DNA of 64,000 nucleotides. It comes from a virus. Its lineage: Duplodnaviria > Heunggongvirae > Uroviricota > Caudoviricetes. Shown one piece after another: positions 11,506 to 63,589 of the stretch. Position numbers and translations under genes: made by a program. The stretch lies in IMG/VR virus record IMGVR_UViG_3300045988_142422. The stretch is one strand, 5' to 3'. Below the pieces are notes generated by a model, which searched no databases, had not been told where the DNA came from, and worked only from the letters and a program-made list of their open reading frames with translations. Each line of letters starts with the position of its first letter. The first letter of the stretch is position 1.

Positions 11506-11868
11506 TCTTAATTCCCTTTCTACGTGATTGGTACATTGTTTATTTCTGGACGTTTCTTAAGTTGTAGACGCTATTCTGTGTCTGAGTAATCTACAATAAT
11601 TTGTTACACTTAACAATGTTGCAACCGTCTGGCGTGCAGCTGTTTTGAAGTAGATCTTAAGGTTGCATACCATGAGACTAAAAACTAGGTTGGGTTGGTT
11701 TTTGACCTGCTTCCGTATATAAATACTAAGTTACTTATTATTATTTATACGGAAGCAGGTCTTTTATCTGCTGACTTCCCAGATACATTCCCTTCCGTTT
11801 CCACTTCCAAAAACTGCCACCAGTCGCTATCATCCGCTCATCGTGATAAGTAAGTAACTACCTACCAG

Positions 11869-18498: not shown

Positions 18499-18785
18499 GC
18501 AATTTAACTTCTTGGGAATGGTGGTTGGCCACCTATTTCTTAGCGGCCGGAGTCGCATTCGCCTTTTACGTAGGTCAGTTAGTCGTAAAACTGTTGCTGA
18601 TTAAATTTGCTAGTCATAAACGTATCGATGATGGTCTGTGGCGTCTTGGCACCCTGGTGGAAACTCGCTACGGGCAACTTAAGGAGAACGAAACCATTAC
18701 TATCCAAGCGAAACGATTCACTGCCACCATTACAAGAACACCTAGTCGTAGAGTGGCCTTGATCAAAAAAGTCACAACCGAATAA
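18495..18785 (+). CDS. Small membrane protein
   Basis: 96 aa; N-terminal TM WWLATYFLAAGVAFAFYVG; ATGA overlap with upstream ORF. Confidence 0.5.
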   Translation: MSNLTSWEWWLATYFLAAGVAFAFYVGQLVVKLLLIKFASHKRIDDGLWRLGTLVETRYGQLKENETITIQAKRFTATITRTPSRRVALIKKVTTE

Positions 18786-18794
18786 AAACATATT

Positions 18795-18816
18795 GATAAG
18801 TATTTACTTACTTATC
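18795..18816. promoter_or_regulatory. Palindromic motif B copy (GATAAGTATTTACTTACTTATC)
   Basis: 8-bp arms GATAAGTA/TACTTATC around TTTACT. Confidence 0.45.
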
Positions 18817-19175
18817 TTTTGTGTATAAGATGACTTTGTTTTCGTTGAGACGCGACTGTTTGAACTTAAATACAAGTGCAAACGAAGAAGTCTATCTGGC
18901 AGTAGCCTAATAAGCCAAACACCAGCGAGGTCAGTTTCCAGCCTCGTTACCGAAATGGGACACACTGAGCGAGTGTGATTGCAGAACGCAGGAGGGAACA
19001 TTCATGTTCCCTCCGATGAAGTAACAGAATGGGCGGTTGGTATATTTTCAACTCCATATGACTCCCGGATTCTTAGCCACTGACCGCCCATCCTGTTACG
19101 TCATTTTGTTCAATTATGTCGTTTATACTGGGTTAAAAAGCGGCGACGTAGCCCGGCTGGTATGGTTAGCCAGCA

Positions 19176-19297
19176 CACAACGTTGAGGCCATTACATTTT
19201 TATCAATTCTAAGGTTCTATTCACAGAGATACCGGCGAGCGTTGATATGTAACATGTTGGGCAAACATTCAATCGGAGTAGTGGCCTCAACGTTGTG
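19176..19297. other. Long hairpin: 16-bp perfect inverted repeat CACAACGTTGAGGCCA separated by about 90 nt
   Basis: Arms at 19176-19191 and 19282-19297 are exact reverse complements; upstream of tRNA pair. Confidence 0.6.
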
Positions 19298-19563
19298 AAG
19301 ACAGGATTGTTGTGTAGGTTTAACCACTGTTGCCATTGGTGCCTGTTTTCACAACAAATGATTCCATACATCACATTGTATAAATTACAAAGTAGGTGCT
19401 GTCCTCAGAAACATCATCTACTTAAAGAGTTTGCCTTCTACTATTGAGCGAAGTCGAAAGCGTCTGGCACTAACGAAAAGTGCAAGTAGCGGTGCGTTTC
19501 CTGGCAGAAACTAAACCGTCGCGATTGGCACTGTTGAGTAATAAATACAGGCAGTGCTGAATT

Positions 19564-19638
19564 GATGGTGTAGCTCAGCGGTAGAGCAGTTGGCTGTTAA
19601 CCAACTGGTCGGTGGTTCGAATCCACCCACCATCGCCA
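19564..19638 (+). tRNA. tRNA-Asn (anticodon GTT)
   Basis: Cloverleaf by eye: acceptor GATGGTG/CACCATC, D-arm GCTC/GAGC, anticodon loop CTGTTAA, T-loop GGTTCGAATCC, 3' GCCA. Confidence 0.85.
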
Positions 19639-19640
19639 AT

Positions 19641-19716
19641 GCCGGTTTAGCTCAGTTGGTAGAGCGCCTGCCTTGTAAGCAGGATGTCAGCGGTTCGAGT
19701 CCGTTAACCGGCACCA
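19641..19716 (+). tRNA. tRNA-Thr (anticodon TGT)
   Basis: Acceptor GCCGGTT/AACCGGC, anticodon loop CTTGTAA, T-loop TTCGAGT, 3' ACCA; 2 nt after tRNA-Asn. Confidence 0.85.
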
Positions 19717-19786
19717 ATACAACGATAAGATCATTACGGTTAATCGTCGTTCATGTGCACAATGACTGGTCGAAAGGTAGTGATCT

Positions 19787-19938
19787 TACCGTTGTGGTGG
19801 ATTCGCAGACTGATGCGATAGCTTTCTTGGATGTTAGGGAAATGCGGCCGCAAATCTTCCCTTTCGCGAGCGGTGATCGTCCGTAGTCCTAATTGGCTGC
19901 ACCGTATGCCGGAGATTCAGTACCGGCCACCACAACGG
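19787..19938. other. Long-range inverted repeat (12 bp CCGTTGTGGTGG / CCACCACAACGG) enclosing about 126 nt
   Basis: Arms 19787-19800 and 19927-19938; second arm ends 2 nt before tRNA-Ser. Confidence 0.5.
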
Positions 19939-19940
19939 CC

Positions 19941-20027
19941 GGAGAGTAGGGAGCATGGTGCTCAAGCGGTCTTGAAAACCGTCCCATTGCGCAAGCGATG
20001 ATGGTTCGATTCCATTACTCTCCGCCA
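19941..20027 (+). tRNA. tRNA-Ser (anticodon TGA), long variable arm
   Basis: Acceptor GGAGAGT/ACTCTCC, anticodon loop CTTGAAA, long variable arm, T-loop GGTTCGATTCC, 3' GCCA; D-arm atypical. Confidence 0.7.
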
Positions 20028-20029
20028 GA

Positions 20030-20107
20030 CACAGCGTTGAGCGGTTTGGCCTTTTAATCAACTCGATTAAGACTCCGCTAACATAAACCAGACCGCTCAA
20101 CGCTGTG
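20030..20107. other. Long hairpin: 16-bp perfect inverted repeat CACAGCGTTGAGCGGT with about 46-nt loop, directly after tRNA-Ser
   Basis: Arms 20030-20045 and 20092-20107; shares CACARCGTTGAG core with the 19176 hairpin. Confidence 0.6.
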
Positions 20108-20181
20108 ATAGACAATTACGGCAGACGTTCTTAACCATAGCTTGCTAACATCCTAGCAACACTTTTTTAAGCGCAAAATCC

Positions 20182-20205
20182 AAAGGGGCTTCGGCCCCTT
20201 TTTTG
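20182..20205. terminator. Bidirectional rho-independent terminator
   Basis: GGGGC-TTCG-GCCCC stem-loop flanked by A-run and T-run (AAAGGGGCTTCGGCCCCTTTTTTG). Confidence 0.8.
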
Positions 20206-21114
20206 TTAATGATTGCCTAGATATGATTTTAGTTCTTCTTTAATGATTAGTGAGTATTCTAAAATATCACTTAGTAAAAATTTTGCTCTGTTAAAATACC
20301 CACCAAAAGAACCTAAAATTTCAGATGGTCTTTCTAAGAGCATCACAATATCATCTTCTTGCACTTTAGTAATGTAACTTCTAACAGCTTTTTCTCCAAT
20401 AACTCTTTTCTTACCGTTTATTTCAGATTCATCTAAAACCTTATTTATAAATTTTTCTGTATCATTGAATCGTCCACTATTGTGTACTATTGTATGTCTT
20501 AGTAGTTCAATTAGCTTGATGTTAAAGCGATAGTTTTTGCCAATCTTGTTGTTTGTTTCTATCTCTTTGAAGCCAGGTATTTTATTTCTGAAAATTTTAG
20601 TTATTTTTTTCGATGGGTTACTTTTTGCTTTTAATAATCTGTAATAAACTTCCCTTTTCCCAATTTCATCATCTTCAACCTTACCAAAATCACTTGAGGA
20701 CCATAAATCATTTCGAACACATACAGTATAGACATATATTGCCTCAATATAGTCTTCCAGTAACTCATAGGCTTCAGTAATAACCCACTGATATTGTTTA
20801 TTTTTCAAAGTATTACACAATCTTATCTTTTCTTCTAAATCAATGGCGCTGTTACCTATCTCTAATGTTGAACCTGTATATGGGTTTGAACATAAATGGC
20901 GAGCTAACGTTGTGCCACACTTAATCTTAATAGTTTCATTAATATTAATAATAGTATCTGGATTCTGTGCATACTCCACTTCTTTAAGAAGACGTTTTAT
21001 ATTTTTCTTTGTTGTATCATTTATCTGATTTAAATAGTCAAAAAGTAAAGATATTTCTTCTCTAAATTCGTTGTATTTATTTTCAATCAAAGAATCAGAC
21101 AACTTACCAATCAT
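20206..21114 (-). CDS. AT-rich hypothetical protein with HEPN-like R-x4-H motif (candidate abortive-infection/defence protein)
   Basis: 302 aa, Lys/Asn/Ile-rich, markedly lower GC than flanks; motif LLRHTIVHNSG; isolated on minus strand between tRNA cluster and glutaredoxin. Confidence 0.3.
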   Translation of the reverse strand: MIGKLSDSLIENKYNEFREEISLLFDYLNQINDTTKKNIKRLLKEVEYAQNPDTIININETIKIKCGTTLARHLCSNPYTGSTLEIGNSAIDLEEKIRLCNTLKNKQYQWVITEAYELLEDYIEAIYVYTVCVRNDLWSSSDFGKVEDDEIGKREVYYRLLKAKSNPSKKITKIFRNKIPGFKEIETNNKIGKNYRFNIKLIELLRHTIVHNSGRFNDTEKFINKVLDESEINGKKRVIGEKAVRSYITKVQEDDIVMLLERPSEILGSFGGYFNRAKFLLSDILEYSLIIKEELKSYLGNH

Positions 21115-21563: not shown

Positions 21564-21743
21564 TCCCACCAAACCACTCCTGTTTCCCTTAAAATTCAAA
21601 AAACAACGTCTAAATGATTCCATACCTACTATGTATGGAATCATTGCTGAAAATGAGTTACTTTTACTCTTGATCCTATAAGAATCTATGCCTAATATAC
21701 TGTTTACTTATACAGTGCATCGGCGTAACTCGGTGATTGTCAT

Positions 21744-22847
21744 ATGAAAAATAGCTTTGACAGAGCACGCGCTGCGGAGAACACCTCAAAAGAGGCGATA
21801 GAGTATCTCGAAAGAGCATCTCAAATGCAGGCCGTTATGATCTCCCAGGTCAGCAATGACATGAGATTCTCGGACGCATTCATGTTATTCACTCGCTTAT
21901 CTCTGCTGATAACCAGACGTCGGCCAGAGATCGCTGTTCATTGTATTTTGATACATGTTTTGCCGCACATTGCCGATGTAAAAGTAAGTGACATTAATAG
22001 GTTCATGGTGAACCAACTGGTCAACCCACTAATACTGGATGGCAAAATTGTTATGGGCCGCCGCGTTTTCTCTCTGATGAAGCAGTTCCTTAGCTGGTGC
22101 GCCTTCCAGGGGATGATAGACGTGTCACCGTTAAACGATATGTCACTTAACAAAGTTGCCGGTGGCGCAAAGCCCACACCTCGCGAGCGGAAGCTGACCG
22201 ACGCAGAGGTATGGGTGTTCTGGAATATATGGGACTACTTCAATGTGTGTGCTGGTACAAAATGGGCGGCCAGGCTATGTCTTGTATCCGCAAGACGACC
22301 TGACGAAGTACTGCGGGCTAAAAAAAGTGAGTTCAATCTTAAGCGTGGGGTTTGGAATCAAGGCAAGAGGAACAAATCTGCCCGTGAGCATTCTCTGCCT
22401 TTAAGCTCATTAATGCGCACTTGTATTGAAGAGTTGTTCGAATATGGTAAAGACAGCCAGTGGCTCGTGCCTTCGAATAAAAAAATCGGGAAAGACCTTC
22501 CTATGTCTAAAGTGGCAATAGCCCAGGCATTACGTCGTATTCTGGAACGACCAGAACTGATGGAGCTTGAGCCATTTACACCCCGAGATTTGCGCCGTAC
22601 TGCGCGTAGTTACTTCCCAGCATTAGGCATAAGCCAGGAGGTATCACGTAAAATCATGAACCACAGTCTTGAGGGGATAGATCGGGTCTACGACCGGCAC
22701 GATTATATGGACGAGATGCGAGACGCCTTAGAAAGTTTCTCGACGTACATCGCATCAATCGTAGAGCAACCGGATTTAGACGAAATTGACCACAAATTTA
22801 AGGGAGATCGTCTATCAACAGAGCTTATTCGTGTAAATTTTTCATAG
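21744..22847 (+). CDS. Tyrosine recombinase (integrase or resolvase)
   Basis: C-terminal catalytic region DLRRTARSYF...HSLEGIDRVYDRHDY with R..H..Y signature. Confidence 0.7.
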   Translation: MKNSFDRARAAENTSKEAIEYLERASQMQAVMISQVSNDMRFSDAFMLFTRLSLLITRRRPEIAVHCILIHVLPHIADVKVSDINRFMVNQLVNPLILDGKIVMGRRVFSLMKQFLSWCAFQGMIDVSPLNDMSLNKVAGGAKPTPRERKLTDAEVWVFWNIWDYFNVCAGTKWAARLCLVSARRPDEVLRAKKSEFNLKRGVWNQGKRNKSAREHSLPLSSLMRTCIEELFEYGKDSQWLVPSNKKIGKDLPMSKVAIAQALRRILERPELMELEPFTPRDLRRTARSYFPALGISQEVSRKIMNHSLEGIDRVYDRHDYMDEMRDALESFSTYIASIVEQPDLDEIDHKFKGDRLSTELIRVNFS

Positions 22848-30960: not shown

Positions 30961-31232
30961 AAGAATTATGGCGCTTGTTGAGGAAGTCACTCCTCTTACG
31001 CACTTTGTTTTGCCATGCCGGCAGTTAGCTTCTGCCTTTGACTATTCATGCGGCAACCCCGCATTTCGCCACAATGGGCAATTCACTTTTATGGAATAAA
31101 CTGGCCGTTGTGTCGATTTAATTAGCATGGCCTTACCATGCTAATTTATTCAACTTGTACAATCCTACAAATCTATCCACTCAGGCTTACACCGTCTTCG
31201 TTATTGTAGAAATGAGGATCATCAGCGTTGAA

Positions 31233-31448
31233 TCAGCTTAGAGCAACGACATTTGCTGCTGCTGGGCCTTTAGCCCCATTCTCGATAGAGAATTCGACCT
31301 GCTGGCCTTCTTCCAAAGTGCGGAAATTATTACTCTGAATTGCCGAAAAATGTACAAAAACATCTTTACTGCCATCAGCAGGAGAAATAAAGCCAAAGCC
31401 TTTATCAGAGTTAAACCATTTTACTAAACCAGTCATTTTATTAGACAT
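31233..31448 (-). CDS. cspA: Cold-shock protein (CspA family)
   Basis: [38 protein letters not shown]... near-identical in pattern to enterobacterial CspA; track ORF extended upstream of true start. Confidence 0.95.
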
Positions 31449-31777
31449 AGATATTACCTTCTTAATTTTGTGAGCCACATAGTGCGGCGAGAATTTGATC
31501 TGTATAGATTGGGACTTACTTAGGCACTTAAGGAGGAGACTCACGAAGAAGGGAAATCAGAAGATAACACTGAACTGAGACTGCTTTACTAAAACTGCTT
31601 ACATAAGGTCTGTCTTGCAAACCAACGATGCTATTAACGCATACCCCTTCTTTTCATGCAACCTTTATTTTTCAAAGATAACTAATTTTTGTCACCATTG
31701 GTTTAGTAAACGTTAACGAACCAGACGATGCCAGACACCTTTACAGAGAACAGATGCCCGCCAATTGGCGGGCATCA

Positions 31778-39552: not shown

Positions 39553-40030
39553 CCACTGCGGTGAGTAGTCTGCTCACCGCATTCGTATCCAGCTCATTAT
39601 CCACTGTAGTCAGTAACAAAACCTTCCTACATATCTGCTAACCACTGTAGCGAGTAGACAGCCTTTCATTCGCATCAAACAACCACTATGGTGAGTATTG
39701 GAGTGAGATGTCCAGCGGGTATCCACTATGGTGAGTAAGCCTTTGCTGTTTTCAGTGGATATCCACTCGCCACAGTGGATACGCTCAAAGATGAGGGCGA
39801 CAACAACCACTATAGACAGTAAATTTTCCAAGATACCCAGTGACCACTAACCTCGCAGCCCTTGTTTCATCAGTGTTAGTGATCACTAACATTTAATTCG
39901 GTATTTGCATTCTACTGCCTACAGTGGTTATCAACAGATAACGATACTCACTATAGTGGATAGCGAATTACAGATATAAGTAAGGCTCACTACAGTGGAT
40001 AGTGAGCCTTACTACTAACTACAGTGGTTG
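39553..40030. repeat. Iteron array downstream of repA (copy-control locus candidate)
   Basis: At least 9 copies of about 16-22 bp units with core CCACTRYRG / CYRYAGTGG in both orientations. Confidence 0.8.
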
Positions 40031-44045: not shown

Positions 44046-45962
44046 ATGAAGTTTTTAAAACTCCAGGTTGAGAATTTTATGGCTATCGCCAGCGCGGAGG
44101 TCGAGTTAGATCAGCGTGGTTTAGTGCTTATTCAGGGTGTTAATAGTGATGATAGTTCCGCATCAAGTAATGGCTCTGGAAAGTCAACTCTAATGAATAG
44201 CCTGATGTGGTGTCTTTATGGCGAAACAGCTCATGGTGTGAAGGGTGACGATGTGTTGTCTACCGACCATGAAAAGAACTGTCGTGTTGCAGTAACCATC
44301 GAGGATGAAGGCAAGAGATACGCAATCATTCGTCACCGTAAACACAAAGAGTTCAAAAATCGTCTTATCGTTCGTGGTGAAGATGGCGATATGACGAAAG
44401 GCAAAGATGCGCTGACGCAGGAGTTCGTTGAGCGTCTGATCGGTGCATCTAAAGAGGTTTTCATGGCTTCCATCTATGCGAGCCAAGAAGCTATGCCAGA
44501 TTTACCTGGAATGTCCGACAAAAACCTCAAAACCATCGTAGAAGAAGCCGCTGGCGTTGACAGACTGACTCGCGCCTACGCTATTGCTCGTGAGCGAGCT
44601 AATGCAGCTGCCGCACGTATGGATGTGGTTAAAACCAAATTGGAGTCGACAATCTCGACCATTGAGGCAACACAGTCAGAAATTGAGTCAGCGAAAGCCT
44701 CCTCTGAATCATGGGAGCAAGAGCGTTCTAAACGTTATGACGATGCCCTGGCTGGGCTGGCCAGTGCCGAAGTTGAGTTAACGGAAGTTGAACTTGAGAT
44801 CCGCACTCTTCCCGAACAGATCCGTGATACCGAGAAGGCAATCGAAAGTGAGCGCAAAAAGTTAGCCTCAAAAGAAGAACATGACGCCAAGTTGCTCAAA
44901 GTTCGTGGTGCGATAACTGATATTCGGGCAAGCATCAAAGCTACAGAAAATAGTCAGGCTGATGCAATGAACCGCGCGCGTAATTTTAAGACCAAAGCAG
45001 AAGAGGTTGGTACTAAAGTGGGATCACCATGCCCTACTTGTGGCAAAGCCTACTGCGAAGAAGATCTATCAACGGTGAAGGAGAATTTCATTGAACAAGC
45101 ACGTCAGGAAATTGGTCAGGCGAAGACACTTGCAGAGGCAATGGCTAAACACAAAACGAATCTTGAGAAAGCGTTAAGCATTGAGTCTGCCCTTGTTAAA
45201 ACGACACCTGATGTAACGGCTATCATTGCCCGGATTGAAGAGCTTACGAAACAACTCTCATCTTTGCGTCATCGTGAGAAGGAGGTTGTTGCTATTGAGT
45301 CTCTTGTGACTCGTGCTCGTACTGAGGTCGATCGTATATCAAAAGAGATTAATCCGTTTATTGCTCTTATCGCCAGACACGAAGATAACTTGGTATCCAG
45401 TAAGTCTACCTTCAAGTCCTTAAAAGATGAGTTGAAGGCTATTCAGGAACAAACGTTGCTATTGGAAAAAGCTCGTCAGGTCTACTCTCCTGCCGGGGTG
45501 CGTTCTCATATTTTGACGTCTGTTACGCCTTTCCTGAATACACGCACTGCCGAGTATCTCAATACGTTGTCTGACGGGAATATTACTGCTGAGTGGTCGA
45601 CGATGGATGTCACTAAAAAAGGTGAGTATCGCGACAAATTCAACATTAGTGTGCAGAAGAAAGGTTCAAGTAAGTCGTTCCAGACCCTCTCTGGTGGTGA
45701 GAAGCGGAAGGTTCGCATTGCGTGTTCTTTGGCATTGCAGGATCTGGTTAGTAACCGGGCGAGTAAAAACATCGATTTGTTTATCGGCGACGAAATTGAC
45801 GATGCACTCGATACAGCCGGTCTTGAACGCCTCATGGGTATTCTGGAGTCCAAAGCTCGCGAGCGAGGTACTGTGCTGATTATCTCCCATAAAGAGATGA
45901 AGTCATGGTTCCGGGAAACTATTACGCTGGAAGTTAAAGAGGGGCGCAGCTATGTCGTTTAA
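44046..45962 (+). CDS. SbcC/Rad50-like ATPase (T4 gp46-like)
   Basis: Walker A GSGKSTL, long coiled coil, zinc hook CPTCGKAYC, signature LSGGEKRK, Walker B DLFIGDEID. Confidence 0.8.
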   Translation: MKFLKLQVENFMAIASAEVELDQRGLVLIQGVNSDDSSASSNGSGKSTLMNSLMWCLYGETAHGVKGDDVLSTDHEKNCRVAVTIEDEGKRYAIIRHRKHKEFKNRLIVRGEDGDMTKGKDALTQEFVERLIGASKEVFMASIYASQEAMPDLPGMSDKNLKTIVEEAAGVDRLTRAYAIARERANAAAARMDVVKTKLESTISTIEATQSEIESAKASSESWEQERSKRYDDALAGLASAEVELTEVELEIRTLPEQIRDTEKAIESERKKLASKEEHDAKLLKVRGAITDIRASIKATENSQADAMNRARNFKTKAEEVGTKVGSPCPTCGKAYCEEDLSTVKENFIEQARQEIGQAKTLAEAMAKHKTNLEKALSIESALVKTTPDVTAIIARIEELTKQLSSLRHREKEVVAIESLVTRARTEVDRISKEINPFIALIARHEDNLVSSKSTFKSLKDELKAIQEQTLLLEKARQVYSPAGVRSHILTSVTPFLNTRTAEYLNTLSDGNITAEWSTMDVTKKGEYRDKFNISVQKKGSSKSFQTLSGGEKRKVRIACSLALQDLVSNRASKNIDLFIGDEIDDALDTAGLERLMGILESKARERGTVLIISHKEMKSWFRETITLEVKEGRSYVV

Positions 45963-56495: not shown

Positions 56496-56501
56496 AACAA
56501 A

Positions 56502-56536
56502 AGCCTACTTTAAAAAGTTTAAAGTAGGCTTTCTTT
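56502..56536 (+). terminator. Rho-independent terminator
   Basis: AGCCTACTTT-N9-AAAGTAGGCT then TTCTTTT. Confidence 0.7.
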
Positions 56537-63009: not shown

Positions 63010-63112
63010 CAAATACCTTTATTTAAAGGATTGCCTGTTAATTTCTATTTAGCACCTTTTCATTTTTGAAATAATTGCACCATTAAACAAATCTTTTCTT
63101 AATGGTGCAATT

Positions 63113-63589
63113 ATGAATACAGCTCTTTCCATCATCGACGATGCCAACTCAAACACTGCTATCGATTATCGTCAGGAAATGAACGTCATCCACGAAATTG
63201 TGGCCGAGTGCGAGAAAGAGATCGCCTTCATGTATCAGGTTCACGACTTCGTTTATGGAGACGAACGCCACAACATGATTAATCGCCTGCTGCGACTAAA
63301 CCATCGACCAGATGAAGATCGCTCACGTTTAAATCGAGGTTGGTTGGATAAAGTCGATCTGGAATGGGTGAAACAGAATATTTGGGCCGAGTACTGGAGG
63401 AAGGTCACGGACATGACTAACGTTCTGCTGATTATGCCAGATTCCCGTCGCGACGAGTGGCGTGAGCAGTTTATCGAGGGCAAGCAGGAAACGATCAAGA
63501 CTGACAGAACTGGCTGTCAGATGAAGGTTAAAGAGTTCGTTGGTGTACCTGAGTTCAAAGTGGATACAGACATCCCTACGATGGCTTGA
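63113..63589 (+). CDS. Hypothetical protein
   Basis: 158 aa ORF. Confidence 0.45.
   Translation: MNTALSIIDDANSNTAIDYRQEMNVIHEIVAECEKEIAFMYQVHDFVYGDERHNMINRLLRLNHRPDEDRSRLNRGWLDKVDLEWVKQNIWAEYWRKVTDMTNVLLIMPDSRRDEWREQFIEGKQETIKTDRTGCQMKVKEFVGVPEFKVDTDIPTMA

Follow-up and report, generated by a model that had tools for sequence, protein, structure and literature searches.

Stable RNAs other than tRNAs are known from inside tRNA operons, such as the species 1 and 2 RNAs of phage T4, the rtT RNA of E. coli and the 3'ETS-leuZ sponge. These RNAs are co-transcribed with the tRNAs and freed by tRNA processing, and in this they would resemble the locus studied here, although they are single genes that lack the shared clamp helix of the hairpins described below (hairpins A-C). 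Long duplexes that bracket an RNA are typical of RNase III processing, as in the 16S and 23S flanks of rRNA, the T7 early sites and the lambda late transcript. Daniels et al. are said to have described the RNase III sites of the lambda late transcript in 1988, and depending on where in the transcript they lie, these reported sites could serve as a precedent for the role of our helix. In the PeSL cassettes of T4-type phages and in the lambdoid 'boundary sequences', short repeats flank variable cassettes. Two further groups of RNAs are close to our system: STnc100 and PasD have been detected as prophage sRNAs (10.64898/2026.05.13.724894; PMC12370729), and YrlA (RF02553) is often encoded by phages and located near tRNAs (PMC4201824).

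The 64 kb of DNA analysed here (hereafter the window) represent an E. coli phage-plasmid of the SSU5/pHCM2 type, in which the tRNA region is pieced together, mosaic-like, from structured RNA cassettes (Table 1). The first-pass annotation had drawn attention to three long perfect inverted repeats around the tRNA genes, and all of them were found as described. Stem 1 has 16-bp perfect arms (19176-19191 and 19282-19297) and a 90-nt loop, stem 2 has 12-bp perfect arms (19789-19800 and 19927-19938) that enclose 126 nt and end 2 nt 5' of tRNA-Ser, and stem 3 has 16-bp perfect arms (20030-20045 and 20092-20107) starting 3 nt past the same tRNA. Stems 1 and 3 reach 20 bp if one G.U pair is permitted. 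Perfect inverted repeats with arms of 12 bp or more and no more than 140 nt of loop number 10 in the whole window; 100 dinucleotide shuffles of it gave 0.41 on average, and no shuffled repeat was as long as 16 bp. Stem 1 folded with a z-score of -5.9 and stem 3 with one of -9.9. The three inverted repeats are thus far above chance expectation and represent real, non-random structures.

Table 1. Features of the non-coding tRNA and RNA array (18786-20201) in the window.
Feature	Position	Strand	Description
Extra long hairpin	19016..19104	+	22-nt arms, 91% complementary, 45-nt loop, z -5.3; non-coding leader
Hairpin A (= stem 1)	19176..19297	+	20-bp helix CACAACGUUGAGGCCAUUAC / GUAGUGGCCUCAACGUUGUG, 82-nt interior
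Post-A unit	19292..19355	+	Closing helix GUUGUGAAGACAGG / CCUGUUUUCACAAC; borrows GUUGUG of the hairpin A 3' arm
Motif ATGATTCCATACATC	19358..19372	+	Small hairpin GAUG-AUUCCAUA-CAUC
tRNA-Asn (GTT)	19564..19638	+	
tRNA-Thr (TGT)	19641..19716	+	
Hairpin B	19718..19796	+	UACAACGAUAAGAUCAUUAC / GUAGUGAUCUUACCGUUGUG, 39-nt interior; 1 nt past the tRNA-Thr CCA end
Unit D	19794..19938	+	Closing helix GUGGUGG / CCACCAC, extendable to the 12-bp pair 19789-19800 / 19927-19938
tRNA-Ser (TGA)	19941..20027	+	CCA encoded
Hairpin C (= stem 3)	20030..20107	+	20-bp helix CACAGCGUUGAGCGGUUUGG / CCAGACCGCUCAACGCUGUG, z -9.9
Intrinsic terminator	20182..20201	+	GGGGCUUCGGCCCC then U-tract; end of the non-coding array

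The stems had been proposed to share a sequence core. The shared CACARCGTTGAG and the related CACAACGG are present, but the 12-mer is not a core in itself, as it forms the outer part of a helix of 19-20 bp. Neither is stem 2 an equivalent of stems 1 and 3: it closes a different unit (D) and competes with hairpin B, a stronger local hairpin that had been overlooked (24-nt arms, 83% complementary, z -4.8). Hairpin B and stem 2 both use the same CCGTTGTG strand, and in the minimum free energy fold of the whole Thr-Ser spacer hairpin B was formed and the 12-bp long-range pair was absent. Hairpins A, B and C make up the set, each with a basal helix of 19-20 bp of the form 5'-CACAAC...GUUGUG-3' and with interiors unrelated to each other. 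The outer 6 bp are CACAAC/GUUGUG in A, UACAAC/GUUGUG in B (a U.G pair) and CACAGC/GCUGUG in C (a compensatory change). The duplex is 20 bp in all three, close to the two turns expected of an RNase III substrate; A and C each contain a single G.U pair, and B contains a single G.U pair as well as an A.C mismatch.

Other long stems were also observed, one in the leader (Table 1) and one at 19292-19305 / 19342-19355. The former (GUAACAG.../...CUGUUAC) is possibly a divergent relative of the family, and its 3' arm is kept in the Klebsiella relative. The latter belongs to a unit that re-uses the GUUGUG strand of the preceding hairpin and ends in CACAAC; such a unit follows both A (the post-A unit) and B (unit D). 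No unit of this kind was found downstream of C, where the terminator comes after about 75 nt. The closing helix of the post-A unit covaries among relatives (GCCACGG/CCGUGGC, GAAACAGGG/CCCUGUUUU, AAAUUAGG/CCUGGUUU), as does that of unit D across the D types (G-C, A-U, G.U). Unit D contains a 5' hairpin (19803-19818) and a 3' hairpin (19908-19925), ends 2 nt before tRNA-Ser, and has an ordinary fold stability on its own (z +0.39). A scan for terminators also matched a weak 5-bp site inside unit D (19803-19818). A generic test for downstream closing helices was weakly above the shuffled controls (8.6 vs 7.4 bp), as GUUGUG pairs promiscuously via G.U, and the support for these helices rests on the specific covariations of the unit D types and the post-A unit. 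Scanning for tRNAs and pseudo-tRNAs (ARAGORN, Rfam RF00005) returned only the three annotated tRNAs.

The stems are conserved in relatives with compensatory changes, out to Klebsiella, pHCM2 of Salmonella and pMT1 of Y. pestis, and the hairpin family is present in the SSU5/pHCM2/pMT1-like replicons with a constant layout. Orthologues of hairpin A were found in pHCM2, Enterobacter, AnCo3, Klebsiella and pMT1, with GGCC/GGCC, GACC/GGUC and AGCC/GGCU as compensatory alternatives. Hairpin C has double compensatory changes at two pairs, and its interior consists of a conserved single-stranded RAAGACUCCGC and a variable small hairpin, which has three different sequences across the E. coli, Klebsiella and pHCM2 lineages. 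The reverse complement of this conserved loop motif occurs in the window at chance level. The family is not peculiar to this replicon but is widespread in unrelated enterobacterial phages, lambda included. More than 60 interior variants of the helix were found, and 64 distinct helix-arm variants aligned, in T1-like, N4-like, P1-like, Stx and lambdoid phages, for example in IME207 (T1-like), IME11 (N4-like), an Stx2a phage, the lambdoid prophage of strain CE10, and the P1-like RCS47 and D6. The member in phage lambda, which we use as the type example, lies at nt 44787-44862, 8 nt past tR'. Matches to the hairpin/D junction were present in 565 of 5426 E. coli genomes, and were chromosomal in 607 of 610 places. 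Near-identical D units were seen in unrelated phages, and the hairpin starts within -2 to +2 nt of the encoded CCA in 109 of 125 tRNA-to-hairpin junctions. When genome contigs were scanned, genuine matches were obtained only in Rahnella and Ewingella, the others being due to chance.

The pairing is under selection. In the non-bulged class, to which A, B and C belong, 92.9% of the cells were paired and 13 pairs had changed on both sides (0 of 500 shuffles), and in the bulged class 94.4% were paired with nine pairs changed on both sides (0 of 500 shuffles); these percentages are inflated, because the elements were gathered partly by requiring a stem. Slid controls of the non-bulged class were 34-57% paired. 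The bulged class has an invariant GUUGUG as its 3' strand; in the non-bulged class GCUGUG and a single AUGUUGUG variant also occur. The 5' variants CAUAAC, CGCAAC and UACAAC can pair with GUUGUG only via G.U. The sense strand folded better than the antisense strand in 91 of the 104 distinct elements, with a mean difference of 5.4 kcal/mol. The strong covariation, the G.U-kept pairing of the variable 5' arm and the excess of sense-strand folding together point to hairpins that act as RNA on the tRNA strand. A bulged A and a U.U mismatch are likewise conserved in the helix of most members. The conservation of the helix sequence goes beyond what pairing would require, which hints at a sequence-specific partner, for which RNase III is not an obvious candidate. 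A covariance model built on the helix only (R1) did not recover A, B and C, but their long interiors are beyond its span and the result is uninformative.

We consider it somewhat probable that the array (1.3 kb, non-coding) is a polycistronic unit of tRNAs and modular structured RNAs in which the helix is a site of RNase III-type processing and confers stability. The hairpins are best read as excisable RNA modules that would be protected from exonucleases. The array would be transcribed on the + strand, and as no sigma-70 promoter was found upstream of it, transcription is assumed to be read-through from the upstream operon or to start from a non-consensus promoter. In hairpins A, B and C, the basal helix, with its outer CACAAC/GUUGUG, clamps a freely variable interior, and unit D and the post-A unit represent a second type of module, with a closing helix that takes the GUUGUG strand and ends with ...CACAAC. 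The long perfect duplexes would be processing and stability elements recognized by a double-strand-specific nuclease of the RNase III type. Cuts in the duplexes, along with the action of RNase P and the trimming of 3' ends on the adjoining tRNAs, would give discrete RNAs with paired ends that resist exonucleases. Cutting or melting of a basal helix would leave its GUUGUG strand free to form the closing helix of the next unit with the CACAAC further downstream. The interiors set free and the D-like units may then function in trans, either as small RNAs or by binding proteins. In one relative (L069) the interior of hairpin A is inverted, suggesting that this interior may not be strictly required.

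The suggestion in the first-pass annotation that the stems are not terminators agrees with the sequence: none of them is followed by a U-tract (the next bases are AAGACA, GUGGAU and AUAGAC), and the terminator of the operon is found further downstream. Its idea of processing structures or stable RNAs stands in so far as the stems behave as RNA structures of the tRNA strand, with the reservation that one of the three belongs to a different unit. The likeness to T4 is apt as an analogy, as the stems have the appearance of processing elements, or of stable small RNAs, within a tRNA operon. RNase III stems are similar in that here, too, a near-perfect duplex of about 20 bp brackets an RNA in a polycistronic and mostly untranslated transcript, and in the lambda late leader a family member is located directly past tR'. 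No further duplex of about 20 bp was seen when the lambda late leader was inspected by eye. Unlike in RNase III sites, the helix sequence is kept here across dozens of unrelated cargoes and several phage families, many members have the bulged A and the U.U mismatch, and cleavage is a prediction. To our knowledge, the RNase III sites known so far have no such conservation of helix sequence across cargoes.

The architecture of unit D resembles that of the STnc100/PasD prophage sRNAs, and D-like units are thus akin to RNAs of known expression. D-type units and these sRNAs both begin with GUGGUGAAUGCG... and end with ...CACCAC, and in lambdoid and Stx phages they share the slot between Q/stx and the holin gene. 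In the window, by contrast, unit D is located between two tRNAs on a phage-plasmid and not in a late leader. Against a gathering score of 47, the STnc100 model (RF02076) scored 44.8 and 43.8 bits on D units of close relatives and 39.6 and 25.6 bits on those of further relatives, and it had no match in 18700-20400, unit D included, at E up to 10. Rfam scans at gathering and E-value thresholds of the window and about 30 related loci gave no family that matches the hairpins; otherwise they returned tRNAs, the near-threshold STnc100 on the D units and weak tmRNA-like or DicF-like matches. The upstream long-stem hairpin is not mentioned in the Pas preprint or in PMC12370729, and literature searches with literal sequence strings and for tRNA-region RNAs of SSU5 and pHCM2 gave no match. 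YrlA is similar in that its 5' and 3' ends form a long stem and in that some members of the hairpin family elsewhere have a tRNA-like T-arm domain, but the interiors in the window have no T-arm. The Rfam model of YrlA matched only true tRNAs (23.7-25.6 bits vs a gathering score of 69), and we rejected a YrlA or Y RNA identity; no Ro60/TROVE gene is annotated in a 41-kb stretch around the locus in the 99.9% identical plasmid pHXH-2. Two other candidates were also rejected: the pMT1 sRNAs sR082 and sR083, considered as hairpin A, are located elsewhere (PMC3770706), and a hammerhead was considered for the CUGAUG of unit D, the core of which is not conserved across the D types.

It is also conceivable, although rather unlikely, that the function is in the interiors, with the helix acting as a clamp or a protein-binding site that displays variable mimics of host RNA (tRNA T-arms, rRNA helices). 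Such decoys would tie up host factors or defence nucleases, or divert them, which is compatible with processing. The fixed helix around highly variable interiors would fit this, as would the perfect T-arm-like hairpins of several interiors (GGGUUCGAAUCCC, GCGGUUCGAUUCCGC, CUGGUUCAAUUCCAG), the 47-nt copy-like mimic of 16S rRNA helix 11 in the D unit of locus L194 (E 2e-7), and the conserved bulged A and U.U mismatch, which are typical of protein recognition sites. However, at E up to 10 no rRNA, tRNA or other Rfam model matched the interiors of the four elements (A-D) in the window, the very different phages with the helix share no candidate binding protein, and the annotation around the locus in pHXH-2 lacks a Ro/TROVE gene, as noted above. 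We regard with similar doubt a broader scenario, a portable RNA cassette system in which the 20-bp clamp helix and the STnc100-like unit would excise and stabilise fast-evolving cargo that moves horizontally and serves as decoys or regulators in the conflict between phage and host. The first-pass annotation had also named recombination structures. That the arms work at the DNA level, as linkers or boundary sequences for shuffling tRNA and ncRNA cassettes between phages with an incidental RNA structure, we find improbable as the purpose of the repeats. Recombination in the arms does occur: phage Cyrano lacks exactly the B+D segment and has ACAA microhomology where the two sides join, the D unit of L045 is a hybrid, and in L069 hairpin A is flipped between its own arms. 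Cassette content also varies between plasmids of more than 97% identity, tRNA-Tyr is found in some relatives and not in others, and D units recur near-identically in unrelated phages. In PeSL and the boundary sequences, too, conserved repeats coincide with recombination junctions, but those flank genes, whereas here the modules are non-coding RNAs and the pairing within each element is selected at the RNA level. A DNA palindrome does not predict strand asymmetry, yet G.U is common on the sense strand, which also folds better in most elements. The compensatory changes hold the pairing within each element, and homologous recombination between elements needs none; moreover, the small interior hairpins conserve structure with different sequences. 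Recombination looks like a consequence of the repeats.

A role in transcription, in which a boxA-like 3' arm is present and the structured spacers shield a long untranslated transcript from Rho or recruit Nus factors, is very unlikely. The boxA of rrn and lambda is UGCUCUUUAACAA / CGCUCUUA, which the consensus of the 3' arm (CAGUGCUCUUUCC) resembles, and the family consensus includes UGCUCUUU; the arrays are also long and untranslated, and the lambda element is in the late leader. However, NusB/E need single-stranded boxA, and here the boxA-like strand is held in a 20-bp duplex. The corresponding 3' arms of the window, GGCCUCAA, GAUCUUAC and CCGCUCAA, are all base-paired and lack the core, so that none of the three hairpins presents the boxA core GCUCUUUA single-stranded, and the middle of the helix covaries freely, meaning that its sequence is not fixed. 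For MITE-like elements or integron attC-like sites speak the terminal inverted repeats, which bound elements of 75-120 bp, and a nearby tyrosine recombinase gene (21744-22847), but such an origin seems extremely improbable. There are no target-site duplications and the flanks differ (CCAGCA...AAGACA; CCAGA...ATAGAC), each interior is single-copy per genome and unique in the window, and the elements have a fixed placement with respect to the CCA ends of the tRNAs. In addition, the attC order (RYYYAAC 5', GTTRRRY 3') is reversed in hairpin C (GTTGAGC 5', GCTCAAC 3'), and the helix is also found in lambda and in virulent phages that have no such recombinase.

A cassette function of the helix in processing and stability, if true, would account for the way phages assemble and punctuate long non-coding arrays of tRNAs and sRNAs. 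It would also provide a route of biogenesis for STnc100 and the PasD-type prophage sRNAs, and a role for a stretch of the lambda late leader for which we found no described function. As one conserved helix spans lambda and P1-, T1-, N4-, SSU5-like and Stx phages, this would be easy to test with lambda and the existing rnc mutants. The helix could, in addition, be a portable part for the expression of stable RNAs, and the variable cargoes, which in some cases mimic host RNA, may be new ground for RNA-based counter-defence. A smaller conserved element of the array is the motif after the post-A unit, which was present in this position in every relative examined; a 13-mer of it recurs in the window as a palindrome at 21613-21645.

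The elements surrounding the tRNA genes of the window are new members of a widespread family of phage RNA modules that is absent from Rfam 15, and parts of this family touch known RNase III stems, STnc100/PasD and the lambda late leader. The hairpins have no match among Rfam 15 families, and the module family was not found described in our literature searches. The window itself is an E. coli SSU5/pHCM2-like phage-plasmid: 18800-20250 is 98-99.9% identical to the ~110 kb plasmids pPEC178_2 and pHXH-2 and to phages CMS-2020a and Cyrano, and was matched in 779 of 5426 complete E. coli genomes, nearly always on plasmids. The array is a 1.4-kb stretch without annotated genes, 3' of the DNA ligase operon and on the same strand.

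Features of the tRNA array in the window, and members of the hairpin family in other phages
Feature	Position	Remark
Small ORF, 5' limit of array	ends 18785	
Additional long stem	19016-19104	
Hairpin A	19176-19297	
Additional long stem, post-A unit	19292-19305 / 19342-19355	
tRNA-Asn	19564-19638	ARAGORN and Rfam
tRNA-Thr	19641-19716	ARAGORN and Rfam
Hairpin B	19718-19796	
Unit D	19794-19938	
tRNA-Ser	19941-20027	ARAGORN and Rfam
Hairpin C	20030-20107	
Intrinsic terminator, 3' limit of array	20182-20201	
Helix in T1-like IME207		upstream of tRNA-Ser and tRNA-Arg
Helix in N4-like IME11		within 2-kb gap of non-coding RNA and tRNAs
Helix in Stx2a phage		downstream of cI
Helix in P1-like RCS47 and D6		
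Helix in lambdoid prophage, strain CE10		between Q/tR' and holin gene
Hairpin in phage lambda	nt 44787-44862	CACAACAGGTAAGAGCATTG...CAGTGCTCTTTCCGTTGTG, 8 nt past tR' U-tract

The three long inverted repeats described in the first-pass annotation lie exactly where it placed them. The window contains 10 perfect inverted repeats that are 12 bp or longer and have loops no longer than 140 nt, compared with a mean of 0.41 in dinucleotide shuffles, none of which reached 16 bp. Hairpins A and C, the outer two, have stems of 20 bp each once one G.U pair is allowed, and their folding as RNA is much more stable than that of shuffled sequences (z -5.9 and -9.9). Hairpin B (z -4.8) had been overlooked, and the strand of its 3' arm, CCGUUGUG, also takes part in the 12-bp long-range pair closing unit D; this pair, reported earlier as the second stem, is present, but it is absent from the minimum free energy fold of the entire Thr-Ser spacer, where B forms instead. 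The structures abut the tRNAs closely, as hairpins start -2 to +2 nt from the encoded CCA in 109 of 125 tRNA-to-hairpin junctions. In the window B starts 1 nt past tRNA-Thr, C starts 2 nt past tRNA-Ser and D ends 2 nt 5' of tRNA-Ser, while in one IMG/VR locus a hairpin adjoins the 5' end of tRNA-Arg.

The stems are conserved in relatives: elements bounded by CACARCG...CGYTGTG were present in all loci fetched from E. albertii, Klebsiella, Enterobacter, Salmonella (pHCM2, AnCo3) and Y. pestis pMT1. The order is constant, with A, ~270 nt, tRNA-Asn, an optional Tyr, Thr, optional B and D, tRNA-Ser and C. The 20-bp stem of C carries two double compensatory changes (U-A to C-G and G-C to A-U) and a U.G wobble kept on the + strand. 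Inside C, a small hairpin, which has a different sequence in each of three lineages, precedes the conserved motif RAAGACUCCGC. The helix of A varies as GGCC/GGCC, GACC/GGUC and AGCC/GGCU, and the closing helix of the post-A unit differs wholly in sequence between lineages with complementarity kept. Cassettes differ even among near-identical plasmids, as B and D are exactly missing in Cyrano and tRNA-Tyr is present in some and absent from others. In one relative (L069:7639-7748) hairpin A carries its interior in the opposite orientation to the flanks and the tRNAs (63/78 identity to orthologues when reverse-complemented, 45/90 as found), which looks like a flip between the hairpin's own 20-bp arms.

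Two IMG/VR pattern scans (91 and >120 loci) and BLAST against phage genomes revealed the common basal helix in phages of widely differing types, in most cases with a D-type unit after it, and the hairpin/D junction was matched in 565 of 5426 E. coli genomes, nearly all chromosomal. The lambda hairpin is likewise followed by a unit, closed by GTTGTGCTG...CAGCACAAC. From 64 distinct helix-arm variants out of 86 interior types, the consensus is 5'-CACAAC(A)GGUAAGAGCAUUG...CAGUGCUCUU(U/A)CCGUUGUG-3'. In lambda NC_001416 the annotated orf-64 (44621-44815) overlaps both tR' and the conserved hairpin, the latter by its initial 29 nt, and in P1-like records (RCS47) 'plp' is annotated over a D-type unit; both small ORF calls may be non-coding RNA modules.

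Selection for pairing was evident in the two helix alignments. In the bulged class 94.4% of cells were paired with 9 pairs changed on both sides (0/500 shuffles), and in the non-bulged class, with A, B and C among its members, 92.9% with 13 such pairs (86 cells, 0/500 shuffles), against 34-64% in slid controls, although these percentages are inflated because elements were collected partly by requiring a stem; the compensatory changes and strand bias are unaffected by this. All bulged-class members have GUUGUG in the 3' arm (type C has GCUGUG), and the 5' variants CAUAAC, CGCAAC and UACAAC preserve pairing through G.U only. At fixed positions most bulged members leave an A unpaired and carry a non-standard mismatch, which is usually U.U. 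With orientation taken from the D junction, sense folding exceeded antisense in 91 of 104 distinct elements (mean 5.4 kcal/mol). These asymmetries favour RNA on the tRNA strand, which in lambda is the late-transcript strand.

The evidence best supports a role for the long duplexes in processing and stabilizing a polycistronic non-coding transcript. As putative RNase III-type sites like those in rRNA operons, they would work alongside RNase P and the trimming of 3' ends on adjoining tRNAs to yield RNAs whose ends are paired. GUUGUG, the strand common to both structures, could pair with the upstream CACAAC to form the hairpin or with the downstream CACAAC to close the next unit, and the two alternative partners suggest ordered refolding after cleavage. 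A 1988 paper reportedly placed sites of RNase III processing in the late transcript of lambda; no second ~20 bp duplex was seen on inspection of the lambda late leader sequence, and the lambda hairpin is a putative candidate location for them. The earlier proposal of processing or recombination structures or small stable RNAs holds in part, with processing the probable role of the stems.

The hairpins could also be protein-binding or decoy scaffolds, which is compatible with processing; in favour are the conserved helix sequence, the hypervariable interiors, some of which include perfect T-arms, and the mimicry of 16S helix 11 by one D unit. The arms are clearly sites of recombination (the Cyrano deletion, hybrid L045 and flipped L069). 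However, arms serving as DNA-level recombination linkers would leave the strand asymmetry and within-element compensation unexplained. Antitermination of the boxA type is a weak reading because the boxA-like strand is base-paired and the window's arms are without the core. Readings as YrlA, attC, MITE, terminator, pseudo-tRNA or boxA all lack a defining feature, in agreement with the earlier view that the stems are not terminators, and the array has its own intrinsic terminator.

D units comprise at least 6 interior types, all with a covarying closing helix GUGRUG/CAYCAC (G-C, A-U, G.U), a 5' hairpin and a 3' hairpin. D units of close relatives scored 44.8 and 43.8 bits with the STnc100 Rfam model (gathering score 47), and that of phage D6 scored 39.6 bits. 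The Rfam scan gave no STnc100 match for the window's own D, which alone is not unusually stable (z +0.39), so that the resemblance of this unit to STnc100 is limited to architecture. Both STnc100 and its relative PasD are prophage sRNAs with known expression; PasD associates with Hfq, was confirmed by northern blot and neighbours Q and holin genes, and one STnc100 copy lies directly 3' of stx2 (10.64898/2026.05.13.724894; PMC12370729). In an IMG/VR prophage contig (L194:1953-1999, -) the D-type interior is a 47-nt near-copy of 16S rRNA helix 11 (GCUAGAUGGUGGGGUAAUGGCUCACCAUGGCGACGA; SSU rRNA model, E 2e-7), followed by a DicF-like hairpin (22.7 bits), and the 3' hairpin GCCGGAGAUCAGCGCCGG matches rydB positions 30-47.

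The tRNA-Ser(UGA) of the window scores 46.6 bits on the tRNA-Sec model (gathering score 47) and not on the general tRNA model, and the phage D6 record also marks its copy as atypical. In one relative (L088:1117-1191) tRNA-His(GTG) is called where tRNA-Asn(GTT) normally sits, suggesting an anticodon change in a phage tRNA. The non-coding leader 5' of the hairpins (18878-18990; GCAAACGAAGAA..CTGGCAGTAGCCTAA..ACACCAGCGAGGTC...) is common to unrelated phages, with counterparts in N4-like IME11 (L125 ~1320-1430) and IMG/VR locus L240, and may be another conserved RNA module; the equivalent region in relatives gives weak permuted-tmRNA/tmRNA-like matches (e.g. L125 1203-1351, E 0.0015). Directly past the array terminator, on the opposite strand, lies a 302-aa AT-rich ORF (20206-21114, -) with no Pfam match; Cyrano and E. 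albertii relatives have a Gp49-family gene instead, and the slot may be a hotspot for accessory or defence cargo.

Elsewhere in the window, short-looped perfect inverted repeats of 14-16 bp are present at 11704-11761, 56500-56532, 63071-63114 and 39979-40013, none with CACAAC/GTTGTG ends. A perfect palindrome AATGATTCCATAC-N7-GTATGGAATCATT lies at 21613-21645 between glutaredoxin and integrase genes, and its ATGATTCCATAC motif, which recurs at 19358-19372, immediately follows the post-A unit in every relative; it may act as an operator or as a hairpin loop shared at the RNA level. Upstream of a cspG-like cold-shock gene lies a full-length cspA thermoregulator 5' UTR (31208-31626, -; 185.7 bits), with a weak helix-like match CACAAUGG...CCGUUGUG just downstream of this locus at 31070-31112.
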